This document shows positions 1 to 4,968 of a stretch of 4,968 bases of DNA, piece after piece (the first letter of the stretch is position 1; every line of letters begins with the position of its first letter). The notes below the pieces were generated by a model. It saw only the letters and a list, made by a program, of their open reading frames with translations, was not told the DNA's origin and searched no databases. The position numbers and the translations under genes were made by a program. The stretch is from a virus (Duplodnaviria; Heunggongvirae; Uroviricota; Caudoviricetes): IMG/VR virus record IMGVR_UViG_2711768013_000005. One strand, written 5' to 3'.

Positions 1-17
1 GCCTGTCCAATGTGCAT

Positions 18-51
18 AAAAAAATCCGGAAACAAGTGAGCGTTTCCGGAT
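18..51 (-). terminator. Rho-independent (intrinsic) terminator about 33 nt downstream of the portal stop codon
   Basis: Seen in sequence: minus-strand RNA reads AAUCCGGAAAC-GCUCACUU-GUUUCCGGAUU followed by a U tract (7 T; plus-strand A run at 18-24). Perfect 10-11 bp GC-containing stem (plus 24-33 / 42-51) with an 8-nt loop. On the plus strand the stem is followed by TCTTACACA, so it is functional mainly in the minus direction. Confidence 0.6.
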
Positions 52-84
52 TCTTACACAGCCACTGGATCGGTCAACTGATCC

Positions 85-1241
85 TTAACTGATCGGCATT
101 ACACCACCGGGACGCGGATTCATATCTTCCAGGTCGCGGCAGTCATTGGAAGAGTAAATTCCCCAGTTGATCCCGGTGGCGTAGGCTTCAAAACGGGACT
201 TCATATCCCCGCGCAGTAACGCCCCGGCGTTAAATTTGGCGTAATAAACGCCCTGCTTACTTTTTCGTACCAGTCCGGTGTTGATCCGCTGTTCGATGCG
301 GGTCAGATACGGCACCAGTGAATAGTTGATAAATCCCAGCCCCAGCTCTTCGATATTGTTGAAGGTGGCGCGATCGGTGTTCTGCACCATGTGCAACGGC
401 ACCCGGAACAGACGACAGATTTCTTCCAGCTGAAACTTGCGGGTTTCCAGGAACTGACTGTCCTCGGCGTTCAGCGCCATCGACTTCCAGTCCAGCCCCA
501 TTTCCAGAATCATCGGGCGGTGAGCATTGCCAAGCCCCGTGTGACACTCCTCAAAATCTTTCTTCAGACGCTCGTAAGCATCCGGCGTGAGCTTTTGTTC
601 CGTACGCAACACACCGGATGTCACCGCACCATTACTAAACAACCTGGCACCGTGCTCCTCGGTTGCCGCTGCCAGTGAAATGGCCTCACGCGCATACGCA
701 ATGGGATTCAGCCCGACAAGTCCATCCAGCGTCAGGGTGCGCACATGCCAGATTTCATTCTGGGTCAACACATCCACGGAACCATCCGGAAACGTCACCT
801 GATAAACCGGCTGCCACTGGCTGTTCAGCTTCGGTTCCACACAGCCCGGATCTATCGGAAGAAGCTCCACCACTTCTCCCAGTGCCTTTACCTTGTAGGC
901 GTAAAAATTCCCCCGTAGACACAGGCAGACAATAACCAGCTCCCAGAATTCCTGCGGTGTCATGTAGCCATTAGGTTTTGCCGAAACCAACTTATGCAGT
1001 CGTTCATCCACCGCCCGTGTTTTCAGGGTACCGCTGATTTTGTAGAGACTGCAGGGCAGCATACCAACAGACTCTGCCAGCACCCTGACGCAAGAATAGA
1101 CCGCCGTCAGGCGCATGGCCCGCTGGCTACTGATCCGCTTTCCGGTATAGGTGTCGTATGACAGCCCGATAGCATCAGCAGTTCTGCTGGCGTGGTCACC
1201 GGCACATCGCTTTTTCGTTGAAATAATCCCGAAAAGAACAC
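85..1241 (-). CDS. Phage portal protein, HK97 family; 5' end appears frameshifted (alternative boundaries: in-frame ATG at 1114-1116, or the long ORF to 1332)
   Basis: Minus-strand ORF open from 1332 to TAA at 85-87 (415 codons). Translation carries the portal-like segment AMRLTAVYSCVRVLAESVGMLPCSLYKISG near the N-terminus and has the expected size and position (immediately downstream of terminase large subunit). In this frame there is no ATG/GTG/TTG between the TTG at 1330-1332 (no RBS, overlaps the upstream small ORF) and the ATG at 1114-1116. A GTG at 1239-1241, preceded by GGAGGT with a 5-nt spacer and overlapping the upstream stop (TAGTG), opens a different frame that runs 44 codons to TGA at 1107-1109. 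Family assignment is from memory of HK97-type portals. Confidence 0.85.
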
Positions 1242-1423
1242 TATTTACCTCCGCCGACAGACTGCCGTGTACGGTCGAGATATCGCGCCACCAGCCACGA
1301 CCAGAACAGGCACAGCGCCCCGGCAACAACAAAACCCGCCGGGGGATAAATCAGCCAGGCACCATACGCCAGCAAAAGCGCACCCAGCACGCCCACCAGA
1401 GGCGCGAGAATCAGCATGATCAT
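1241..1423 (-). CDS. Small hypothetical membrane protein (60 aa, two predicted transmembrane helices) between terminase large subunit and portal
   Basis: [63 protein letters not shown]: two hydrophobic stretches followed by a basic tail. ATG at 1421-1423 is preceded by GAGGT at 6-nt spacing, 11 nt after the TerL stop (TAA, 1435-1437). Its stop TAG (1241-1243) overlaps the GTG of the putative portal start. Function unknown; the call rests on RBS, coupling and hydrophobicity only. Confidence 0.55.
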
Positions 1424-1434
1424 AATTACCTCAG

Positions 1435-3168
1435 TTAAAGCGAGCGGATCCCGTAGGACTCAATGTGGTCAGACAGCGTGTCTTCTTTCTCGTACAGCAT
1501 GGCTCTGCCAACCGCCATAATCAGCGCAACTGCACCATCGATTTTGTTTTCCGCCTGCTCTTTGACGGGTTTCACCACATCATCGTTACCCGGCATGTTT
1601 TTGCCGACCACGTTGCCGATACACCAGGTCATGATGGGATTGCCGTCATGATGAAAACGTCCCGATTCAATCGCTGCTTCCAGCTCTTTCATCGGATCGG
1701 ACATATTGGTGAAGTTCTGGACGATAGTGACGGGATTCAGGTCTTCATCAGCAAGGTCATGTGACAACCCGGTCGCCCCGAAGGGGTCGATGGGTGACTC
1801 ACTGACCGGGCTGATTTTGTTCGCCGCTTTGGCCTCCTCGAGGATGTAGCGATAATCCACCTCCGCACCATCGGTAACGGTCAGAACGCCCATTTCCACC
1901 CATTTCTGAAAGCGTTCGGCTGTCCGTCGATCTTCATTTTTCTCGACGCTGTACACCGTGTCATACGGTACCCAGAAACGCGGGGCCACACTGTAGTAAT
2001 GCGTTTTACCGTCAATCTCGCGGGTATAAAGTCGCGCCATGCTGTTCATATCCAGCTTACGCGCCAGGTCAAAGGCCAGAATGCACGGCTGCCCCTCGAA
2101 CTGCTCAAGGGTCAGTGATTTATCCTCGCAGCTCTGCCAGCTCACCAAGTTGAAATACGCCGAACGCGCCGACACCCAGATATTGAGGTGTTTTGTTTTA
2201 AAGACGTTTGCCAGACGGGCGTTATTTTTCGCACGCTGCTGCTGACTTAACAAAAATTCGCGATAAACCGACACGCCAATATTTGGATTGGCTTTTTCCA
2301 GCACCTGCGGGCCGGTCCAGTCGTCACCTTCATCAACGGTATAGATGATCCCGAACAGTTCATCGTTAGGCACCGAGCCGTTGAGCATCTCGATGACTTC
2401 CCGCCGCTTGTCGTAGCACGGCCCCTCAATGTTGTACCCGGCGGTGGTGATGGCCCACATCAGTGGCTGACGTCGCGCCCCCATCCCGGTAAGCATTGTG
2501 GTATAAAGCGCATCGGTGGCATGCTCGTGATATTCATCAACCACGGCACAGTGGGGTGATGAACCATCACCTGGGTTGCCGATCAGCGGTTCAAACCGCG
2601 CGCCATCCTCCGGACGGTTCATGTTTGAGGCGTTAACCTCAATCCCGAACGCTTCCGTCAGCATGGGTGTGCGTTTACACATCAGTCGCGCCGGGCGAAA
2701 GACTTCCCACGCCTGTTTCTCTGTCGTGGCACCGGAATACACTTCCGCGCCAAACTCGTTATCACAGGCAAAACAATACAGGGCAACACCGGCAGAGATT
2801 GCTGATTTGCCGTTCTTACGGGGGATTTCGGTGTACACCTCCCGGAAGCGGCGCAACCGGGTGCCTTTATTGACCCAGCCAAACGCACAGCAGATCACAA
2901 ATAGCTGCCACGGCTCCAGCGTGATGGGCATCCGTTTGAATGCCCACTCCCCCTTGGTGTGCGGCAACAGCTGAATAAATTTCGCGGCCCGTTCAGCCAG
3001 GTCCTTGTCGAAGCGGTAACGAAACGACTTACTTTTTTCCGCCATCAGGTCATCAAGATGGCGCTGGCAGGCCTGAATCACAAACTGGCAGGCAACAATC
3101 TTTCCGCGCACGACATCCCGGGCATACTGATTTGCAGCATTTACGTTGGGGTAAGATTTCCGGCTCAT
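1435..3168 (-). CDS. Phage terminase large subunit (Terminase_1-type, the partner of P27-family small subunits)
   Basis: 577-codon minus-strand ORF with ATG at 3166-3168 and TAA at 1435-1437. Contains an ATPase P-loop-like motif ([14 protein letters not shown]), an acidic DEYHEH segment consistent with Walker B, and C-terminal nuclease-domain length. The ATG overlaps the TerS stop (ATGA at 3165-3168), indicating translational coupling. Family recognition from memory. Confidence 0.95.
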
Positions 3169-3659
3169 GATTCGATAATTTTCAGAAACGGGTTAGTGGC
3201 TTTCTTCTGCCCCGCCAGGCCAATCAGACGCTGGCGGCTGCTGGGGTCGAGTCCGAGCATTGCCCCCGTGCTGCTCATCTCGGACTCCTGTTCTTTTTTG
3301 GCGGTCAGCTCCGGATTTTTGACCCTGCCGCCCATTGCACCGGTGATGGTGTTGCCCTGTATGGCAATATTTTTCACGGCACGTCGCCAGAACTCATAGG
3401 CCACGCACCACCGCTCAAGTACCGCCAGGTCAGTCACGCACAGCAGGCCCTGACCGCAGAGTTCTTTGGTTGTCAGTTGCCACATGATCGTGGCGAGAGG
3501 GAGATCTTCTTCAGCGAACCACTCTGGTGGCTCAACACCTTTGATGGGCGTAAAAACAGGTTCATCTTTGTTCAGGGCTCGCTTGCCGGGGTTTCCGGCC
3601 AGCGCCTTGCGCGCCGTTGGCTTGGGGCGACGCCCGGAACGCCCCGCCGTTCCAGCCAT
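3165..3659 (-). CDS. Phage terminase small subunit, P27 family
   Basis: Translation from ATG at 3657-3659 begins [34 protein letters not shown], the characteristic N-terminal signature of P27-family TerS (GRP.KPT..K.L.GNPGKR.LN..EP). AGGAG lies 9 nt upstream of this ATG. The ORF track starts 3 codons earlier at a GTG (3666-3668) that sits only 1 nt from the SD, so the ATG is preferred. Stop TGA at 3165-3167. Confidence 0.88.
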
Positions 3660-3706
3660 ATGCGGCACTCCTGGTTAAATTTCATTTTTCGCGGGTATAA
3701 AAAAAC

Positions 3707-3760
3707 GATGGGGCGGGCAGTCCGGAAGACGTCAGGTCACAGGGATTTGCCCCGCCCCTC
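3707..3760. other. GC-rich interrupted inverted repeat in the HNH-terS intergenic region; candidate cos / terminase recognition site (alternatively an attenuator-like hairpin)
   Basis: Seen in sequence: GGGGCGGG (3710-3717) and its reverse complement CCCGCCCC (3751-3758) separated by 33 nt, extendable by GCA/TGC with one bulge. On the minus strand the 3' arm is followed by ATCG plus T7. The position, between a terminase-associated HNH endonuclease and terS, is where cos sites lie in HK97-like cos phages (established knowledge). The functional assignment is inference. Confidence 0.3.
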
Positions 3761-3780
3761 CCTACAAGTGAGAATAATTA

Positions 3781-4131
3781 TCACCGGATTCGTTCGCGCG
3801 CTGTTTTCGCTTTATGGCAGGGCCAGCACAGACTCTGCAGGTTGCTGTCTGCGTCTGTTCCGCCATGCGCTTTCGGGATGATGTGGTCGACGGTTTTCGC
3901 CTCGCTCACCACACCGACACGCAGACACAACTGACACAGACCTTTATCGCGCTTCAGAATACGGGCACGAATCACCGTCCATTTTGAGCCATAGCCACGC
4001 TGGTGGCGGCTCAGTCCGCGCTGGTGCTGCACCCAGCCTTCACCGCGATGTTTATCGCAGTAACCCGAACTGTCTGTGGTTGTACCTGCACATCCACGCT
4101 TACGGCAGGCACGTGGGATTAGTGATGGCAT
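3781..4131 (-). CDS. HNH endonuclease (terminase-associated, HK97 gp74-like role)
   Basis: 116-aa ORF with ATG at 4129-4131 (GAGGT 5 nt upstream) and TGA at 3781-3783. Contains the HNH core VDHIIPKAHGGTDADSNLQSLCWPCHKAKT flanked by Cys pairs (CQLC ... CWPC), plus an N-terminal Cys/His cluster (C..C ... C..H). Located immediately upstream of terS, as is typical. Confidence 0.9.
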   Translation of the reverse strand: MPSLIPRACRKRGCAGTTTDSSGYCDKHRGEGWVQHQRGLSRHQRGYGSKWTVIRARILKRDKGLCQLCLRVGVVSEAKTVDHIIPKAHGGTDADSNLQSLCWPCHKAKTARERIR

Positions 4132-4173
4132 AAATACCTCATACCCTGCGAAATGTTTACCACGATAAAAAGG

Positions 4174-4418
4174 CTACTTAATGCACTGAGTGCGGATATA
4201 CTCCTGTGCCCCTTCCAGTTGCATCTGCATCGTCATCAGCCGCTCTCTGAGGGTGAAATAATCCCGTTCAGCGGTGTCTGCCAGTCGGGGGCTGGTTGCA
4301 TTATCCACGCCGGAGGCGGTGGTGGCTTCACGCACTGACTGACAGACTGCTTTGATGTGCAACCGACGACGACCAGCGGCAACATCAGCGCGCAGAGTTT
4401 CATTTTCAGCTTTCGCAT
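4174..4418 (-). CDS. Rz: Rz-like i-spanin, C-terminal fragment (5' portion lost in the N run)
   Basis: Translation after the gap, AKAENETLRADVAAGRRRLHIKAVCQSVREATTASGVDNATSPRLADTAERDYFTLRERLMTMQMQLEGAQEYIRTQCIK, closely matches my recollection of the lambda Rz C-terminus (..DVAAGRRRLHIKAVCQSVREATTASGVDNAASPRLADTAERDYFTLRERL..). Stop TAG at 4174-4176. The N-terminal residues shown in the ORF track before the X run (MNNVAIIT..) are out-of-frame junk. Confidence 0.85.
4236..4418 (-). CDS. Rz1: Rz1-like o-spanin outer-membrane lipoprotein, embedded in the +1 frame of Rz
   Basis: ATG at 4416-4418 lies immediately next to the first N. Translation MRKLKMKLCALMLPLVVVGCTSKQSVSQCVKPPPPPAWIMQPAPDWQTPLNGIISPSESG (60 aa) has the lipobox LVVVGC and proline-rich core, nearly identical to lambda Rz1 as I recall it. 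Stop at 4236-4238. Its RBS lies inside the N run. Confidence 0.9.
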   Translation of the reverse strand: MRKLKMKLCALMLPLVVVGCTSKQSVSQCVKPPPPPAWIMQPAPDWQTPLNGIISPSESG

Positions 4419-4589
4419 NNNNNNNNNNNNNNNNNNNNNNNNNNNNNNNNNNNNNNNNNNNNNNNNNNNNNNNNNNNNNNNNNNNNNNNNNNNNNNNNNN
4501 NNNNNNNNNNNNNNNNNNNNNNNNNNNNNNNNNNNNNNNNNNNNNNNNNNNNNNNNNNNNNNNNNNNNNNNNNNNNNNNNNNNNNNNNN
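4419..4589. other. Run of 171 N (assembly gap or masked sequence)
   Basis: Directly visible. It interrupts the lysis cassette between the SAR-endolysin N-terminus and the Rz1 start. ORF-track entries containing X runs are artefacts of translating N. Confidence 1.
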
Positions 4590-4679
4590 ACCACCTGGGC
4601 CAGTGATTAACACAGATGCTATAGCAACAGCCCCACCACCAATAGCAGCTGCAACAGCCTTGCGTAATGATGGCGACAT
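4590..4679 (-). CDS. SAR endolysin (phage 21 R-type lysozyme), N-terminal fragment truncated by the N run
   Basis: ATG at 4677-4679 with GAGGTG 5 nt upstream, overlapping the holin stop (TAATG). Translation [30 protein letters not shown] matches my recollection of the signal-anchor-release (SAR) N-terminus of the phage 21 endolysin ([30 protein letters not shown]..). The remaining ~135 aa are not present in the window. Confidence 0.75.
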
Positions 4680-4894
4680 TATTCACCTCTCGCAGCCTTA
4701 CGCTTGTCTTCTCTTATTTTGAAATACAGATTTGTCAGATAAGTCAGAAGCCCCAGAAGCAGACTTCCCAGCACACCAATCGCAGCCCACTGTGATGGAC
4801 TGACCTGATCCAACCACTGCAAAAACCAGTAGCCGGCACTGCCGGCGGAGGTGCCGTAGGCAATGCCTGTTGATATTTTTTCCATCTGATACAT
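4679..4894 (-). CDS. Class II holin, S21-type pinholin, with dual-start motif
   Basis: 71-aa [77 protein letters not shown] at 4892-4894 and a second in-frame ATG at codon 4 (4883-4885), two transmembrane segments and a charged C-terminus. Nearly identical to the phage 21 / DLP12-type S holin as recalled. G-rich SD-like sequence (GGGGGGCGGG) just upstream. Stop TAA at 4679-4681. Confidence 0.92.
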
Positions 4895-4925
4895 ATCCCG
4901 CCCCCCGACAGACCTGTGCTATCGG

Positions 4926-4960
4926 AAAGAAAAAAGGCCATCAGCAAAACTCTGATGGCC
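4926..4960 (-). terminator. Rho-independent terminator 27 nt upstream of the holin start (tR'-like late-operon terminator)
   Basis: Seen in sequence: minus-strand RNA GGCCAUCAG-AGUUUUG-CUGAUGGCC followed by UUUUUUCUUUCC (9-bp perfect stem at plus 4936-4960, 7-nt loop, T tract at plus 4926-4935). Assignment as the Q-antiterminated tR' equivalent is by analogy with lambda and phage 21 late operons (established knowledge plus inference). Confidence 0.6.
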
Positions 4961-4968
4961 TGAATCAC

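Follow-up and report, generated by a model that had tools for sequence, protein, structure and literature searches.

The run of 171 N that interrupts a phage lysis cassette in the 4,968-nt window (the whole stretch of viral DNA analyzed here) is, with a probability of about 0.9, a scaffold gap of a short-read draft in a cryptic prophage of Shigella sonnei and not a biological feature. Judged from genomes with identical flanks, the true distance across the gap is almost certainly 624 nt, of which 171 N would be an underestimate. The hidden sequence would almost certainly comprise the ordinary remainder of a 165-amino acid R21-type SAR endolysin, together with the first 73 codons of Rz.

Organization of the interrupted lysis cassette

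The window contains a single N run (positions 4419–4589, 171 bases), which splits the first 30 codons of an endolysin gene from the last 80 codons of an Rz gene, both on the minus strand. The cassette begins with a complete class II (S21-type) holin of 71 amino acids (4679–4894, minus strand; PF04971, E 1.5e-35, 121 bits). This exact protein is found in 4969 collection blocks and occupies four or more distinct prophage contexts. A terminator-like hairpin (4935–4961, minus strand), which consists of a 10-bp stem with 6 GC pairs and is followed by a T run, lies ∼40 nt upstream of the holin start, at the far end of the window.

The ATG of the endolysin gene (4679–4677) overlaps the stop codon of the holin gene. 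As the initial annotation had stated, the first 30 codons alone of an R21-type SAR endolysin are present upstream of the gap (4590–4679, minus strand). The visible residues 1–30 are identical to the N terminus of phage 21 R at 27 of 30 positions and form the Gly/Ala-rich SAR membrane domain; the catalytic part falls inside the gap. On the other side, where ∼81 Rz codons had been counted, we found the C-terminal 80 codons plus the stop codon of the i-spanin Rz (4174–4416, minus strand; PF03245 in full-length relatives), and its N-terminal 73 codons fall inside the gap. The o-spanin Rz1 (60 amino acids, 4236–4418, minus strand; PF06085, E 6.4e-20) is complete and embedded in Rz. It uses a reading frame different from that of the enclosing Rz, and both proteins match their own Pfam families. 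The Rz1 ATG (4418–4416) does touch the first N at 4419, an adjacency that had been remarked on before and that is apparently due to chance in the k-mer geometry.

Two open reading frames on the minus strand cross the N run as X residues, one of 170 amino acids (4174–4686) and one of 147 amino acids (4236–4679), the latter resembling an in-frame fusion of endolysin and Rz1. Both are artifacts of the gap, and neither X-containing frame appears as a called gene in the records. The length of the N run corresponds to 57 codons and preserves the frame across the gap, which has a one-in-three chance of occurring and was dismissed as meaningless.

Prophage context and relation to phage 21

The left end of the window (1–110) is the end of an IS4 element (98–100% identity to IS4), of which an E. 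coli genome can carry as many as 32 copies. The IS4 end cuts the portal gene (85–1332, minus strand) short at 343 amino acids, compared with 413 amino acids in related prophages, and in S. sonnei genomes the IS4 transposase follows the truncated portal. The IS4-truncated portal therefore marks the prophage as a decayed remnant without head and tail genes. Between portal and large terminase lies a hydrophobic open reading frame of 60 amino acids (1241–1423, minus strand), which is called in every related locus and for which no Pfam match is on record. The large terminase subunit (577 amino acids, 1435–3168, minus strand) occurs as the exact protein in thousands of assemblies (4305 collection blocks), among them CP000038.1. 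It is preceded by a P27-family small terminase subunit (3165–3668, minus strand).

Downstream of the lysis cassette and beside the terminase genes, an HNH endonuclease (3781–4131, minus strand; PF01844 and annotation in relatives) marks the unique left-hand context. Its gene directly adjoins that of the P27-family small terminase, the usual HNH–terminase packaging arrangement. Positions 3710–4131 are 94.6% identical to phage phiP27, where this region is annotated as HNH endonuclease and cos site.

The gene order and overlaps of the cassette are those of the phage 21 lysis cassette (S21 pinholin, R21 SAR endolysin, and Rz/Rz1) and of its cryptic counterpart essD-rrrD-rzpD/rzoD in DLP12 of E. 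coli K-12. As in phage 21, the holin belongs to PF04971 and Rz1 lies within Rz, and the full-length endolysin and Rz of the relatives are 95.8 and 87% identical to their phage 21 homologs, respectively. In contrast to phage 21 and DLP12, in which bor follows the cassette, the genes for the HNH endonuclease and the P27-family terminase occupy this position here. The holin begins with MYQMEK (4883–4894, minus strand) in place of the MKSMDK of phage 21 S. The dual-start Met1/Met4 motif of S21 is retained, but a Tyr stands where the longer S21-71 (antiholin) form has Lys2. Unlike the phage 21 cassette, the present one resides in an IS4-truncated prophage remnant.

The same locus in closed genomes and proviruses

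Both parts of the window (1–4418 and 4590–4968) are each 100% identical, collinear, and on the same strand in five loci (L004, L005, L006, L010, and L012). L010 is CP000038.1, the complete genome of S. sonnei Ss046 (PMC5447701). Because the flanks are identical to S. sonnei genomes, the source of the window is probably an S. sonnei draft. The exact 30-mer to the right of the gap had no match among the GTDB representative genomes, probably because S. sonnei is not represented there as a species of its own.

We measured the length of the interval between the two 25-nt sequences flanking the gap, a pair that is carried by 14 loci. The interval is exactly 624 nt long in all 14, and 12 of the intervals are identical. 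In CP000038.1 (L010), it spans positions 2,933,409–2,934,032. IMG/VR proviral loci with both flanks (n = 21) gave 624 nt in 18 cases, 623 nt in two, and 622 nt in one. A spacing of 156–186 nt between the flanks was found in neither viral_contigs nor metagenome_contigs. Compared with the identical-flank genomes, the N run thus falls short by 453 nt (151 codons).

In these genomes, the 624 nt are made up of 408 nt of endolysin and 220 nt of Rz, less a 4-nt overlap. The endolysin portion encodes residues 31–165 of a 165-amino acid lysozyme (PF00959, E 2e-45) with 95.8% amino acid identity to phage 21 R. The catalytic triad Glu-35/Asp-44/Thr-50 is present in all identical-flank relatives, and the corresponding positions of the window lie within the gap. 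The remainder encodes the first 73 codons of a 154-amino acid Rz (PF03245, E 2.8e-52), 87% identical to phage 21 Rz.

The initial annotation had placed the N run over the endolysin body and the Rz N terminus and had judged it too small for the missing codons. The closed relatives bear out both statements, since they encode exactly these parts there and hold 624 nt where the window has 171 N. The earlier estimate of ∼600 nt missing (∼135 endolysin and ∼70 Rz codons) comes close to the measured 624 nt. Two alternatives had been offered, of which an undersized or arbitrary gap length agrees with the 622–624 nt of every relative (n = 35), whereas a deletion or fusion finds no counterpart with 156–186 nt in viral_contigs or metagenome_contigs. 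The comparison with intact relatives that had been proposed returned 622–624 nt of ordinary endolysin and Rz sequence, by proxy the signature of a routine assembly gap. The suggestion that the gap might hide something unexpected found no evidence in its favor.

Copy number of the lysis module

Of 5426 complete E. coli genomes, 5066 contain matches to the 624-nt interval, at a median of 2 and a maximum of 8 places per genome. Related genomes hold 2–3 copies of the module, and S. sonnei chromosomes are reported to contain about 23 prophage regions (PMC5447701). Three IMG isolates with two cassettes each share exact runs of 215–483 nt between the copies. Within the interval, exact runs common to the two cassettes of E. 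coli FDAARGOS_944 reach 247 nt, and the holin and SAR regions of its two prophages differ every 10–20 nt. On the basis of this multi-copy status, which was read in related E. coli/Shigella-like genomes, the source strain itself probably holds a second copy of the module.

The best match in E. coli FDAARGOS_944 is 100% identical for the left flank (4100–4418) and 98.9% identical for the right flank (4590–4968). The two matches sit in different prophages, at 0.65 and 4.30 Mb, so that a mosaic joint between cassette types lies inside the hidden interval.

A search with the 165-amino acid lysozyme returned representatives of 90% clusters and not the exact protein. Protein P0006 led to another prophage, which has a terminase of the lambda type and lies in a 4.79-Mb genome. 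Three further proteins from related cassettes (P0008, P0012, and P0068) are single-member lysozyme–Rz and holin–lysozyme fusions, which are probably frameshift or annotation variants.

Recurrent breakage at the left contig edge

An exact-protein look-up of the visible 80-amino acid part of Rz returned Logan contigs. Two contigs from independent runs, L026 (ERR6006230) and L027 (SRR30421534), both begin at exactly window position 4418. L027 (4341 nt, present in 3 samples) is 100% identical to window positions 78–4418, and L026 represents a related prophage. Because Logan builds its de Bruijn graphs on 31-mers (PMC12424806), adjacent contigs share 30 nt. Homology between different lambdoid lysis cassettes sets in at window positions 4388–4391, which is 27–30 nt inside the contig end. 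The contig starts at 4418 and this homology border together identify the left gap edge as a branch point of the graph, and the last 30 nt of the left contig (4389–4418; k − 1 for k = 31) lie within the shared lambdoid module.

Breaks within the cassette are common in draft assemblies. Contigs of 2–5 kb carry the terminase in 1733 collection blocks, contigs of <2 kb carry the holin in 883, and another contig (L013) begins 335 nt into the interval. The assembler behind the window was not a plain k = 31 unitig builder, as the window runs 108 nt into IS4 compared with 31 nt for L027.

At the right edge, the copy-specific base expected for k = 31 (position 4096 of L004) was matched by no proxy cassette. 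Variable sites at the gap edges are found at L004 position 4127 (in L008 and L024) and at 4749/4750 (in L003, L017, and L008). We set aside the observation that both gap edges abut such cassette-variable sites, given that about 1 position in 6 is polymorphic across the compared cassettes.

Origin of the gap and alternative explanations

The gap resembles the repeat-induced scaffold gaps of short-read drafts in that it consists of N only, has flanks collinear with closed genomes and a left contig end at a recurrent de Bruijn branch point, and lies in a prophage module that is multi-copy in related genomes. In the proposed course of events, the main part of the endolysin gene together with the first half of Rz would represent a conserved module carried by several lambdoid prophages per genome. 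The assembly graph would branch on entry into this module, so that contigs end there. A scaffolder would then have linked, via read pairs, the 4418-nt contig, which extends from the IS4 end into the middle of Rz, and the 379-nt contig that carries the endolysin start, the holin, and upstream sequence, and would have written its estimated distance as 171 N.

The distance set by the scaffolder was presumably too low. Naive estimators are said, in work of Sahlin et al. from 2012, to be biased low when only the longest inserts span a gap. Gap-size estimates are less stable with small contigs (PMC4262078), and the undersized value is probably linked to the right-hand contig being only 379 nt long. 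However, 453 nt is a large deviation for paired-end data and exceeds the error usual for repeat-induced scaffold gaps, which counts against the scaffold-gap account.

It is this discrepancy in length that a genuine deletion would remove. In this case, 453 nt (151 codons) of the lysis cassette would be lost, destroying endolysin and Rz, and the ∼171 nt left between endolysin codon 30 and the Rz1 ATG would be repeated elsewhere in the genome and hence unassembled, with the estimate of the scaffolder being correct. The N count is indeed a specific figure and no standard placeholder, and so points to a read-pair estimate. Decay of the prophage has also already set in, with its portal cut by IS4, and related prophages have frameshifted terminase and Q genes. 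Moreover, the break points would be identical with or without a deletion; they account for the gap but not for its stated size and do not discriminate against a deletion.

However, in each of the 35 public loci where both flanks occur, 622–624 nt separate them, and a spacing of 156–186 nt is absent from viral_contigs and metagenome_contigs alike. Genomes in which the cassette is intact match both flanks at 100% identity, and both end points of the deletion would have to fall within the unassembled stretch. Furthermore, the read-pair estimate that favors a deletion involves a 379-nt contig, a situation in which gap estimates are known to be unreliable (PMC4262078). We therefore consider a deletion improbable. 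Less probable still is an in-frame deletion, which would strip the endolysin of its catalytic part and Rz of its membrane anchor and place the SAR domain in frame with Rz1. If true, it would represent a further step in the decay of the cryptic prophage.

A mis-join, in which the 379-nt holin contig would come from another prophage of the same genome or from a collapsed repeat and the 171-N link would be irrelevant to this locus, appears very improbable. The exact holin protein occurs in several prophage contexts (at least four), and the best flank matches in FDAARGOS_944 lie in two prophages (0.65 and 4.30 Mb), as such an error would allow. In complete S. sonnei genomes, however, the flanks neighbor each other with order and orientation as in the window and with 100% identity to it, so that the join reproduces the true local arrangement.

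The least probable explanation is a strain-specific insertion (e.g. an IS element) or a deliberately masked stretch within the gap. IS elements abound in S. sonnei, and IS4 already cuts the portal gene here. With an insertion, however, the contigs would abut in reference coordinates and not lie 624 nt apart, and no relative has one in this interval (14 + 21 loci). A length-preserving mask would give 624 N and not 171, and the graphs of other assemblies recurrently branch at the left edge.

A scaffold gap of understated length remains the preferred reading of the N run. Its relevance is one of data hygiene only, in that the lengths of N runs in draft scaffolds are not to be taken as physical distances. 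The underlying biology is well known, namely an S. sonnei prophage, decayed and truncated by an IS element, with a lysis cassette of the phage 21 type.
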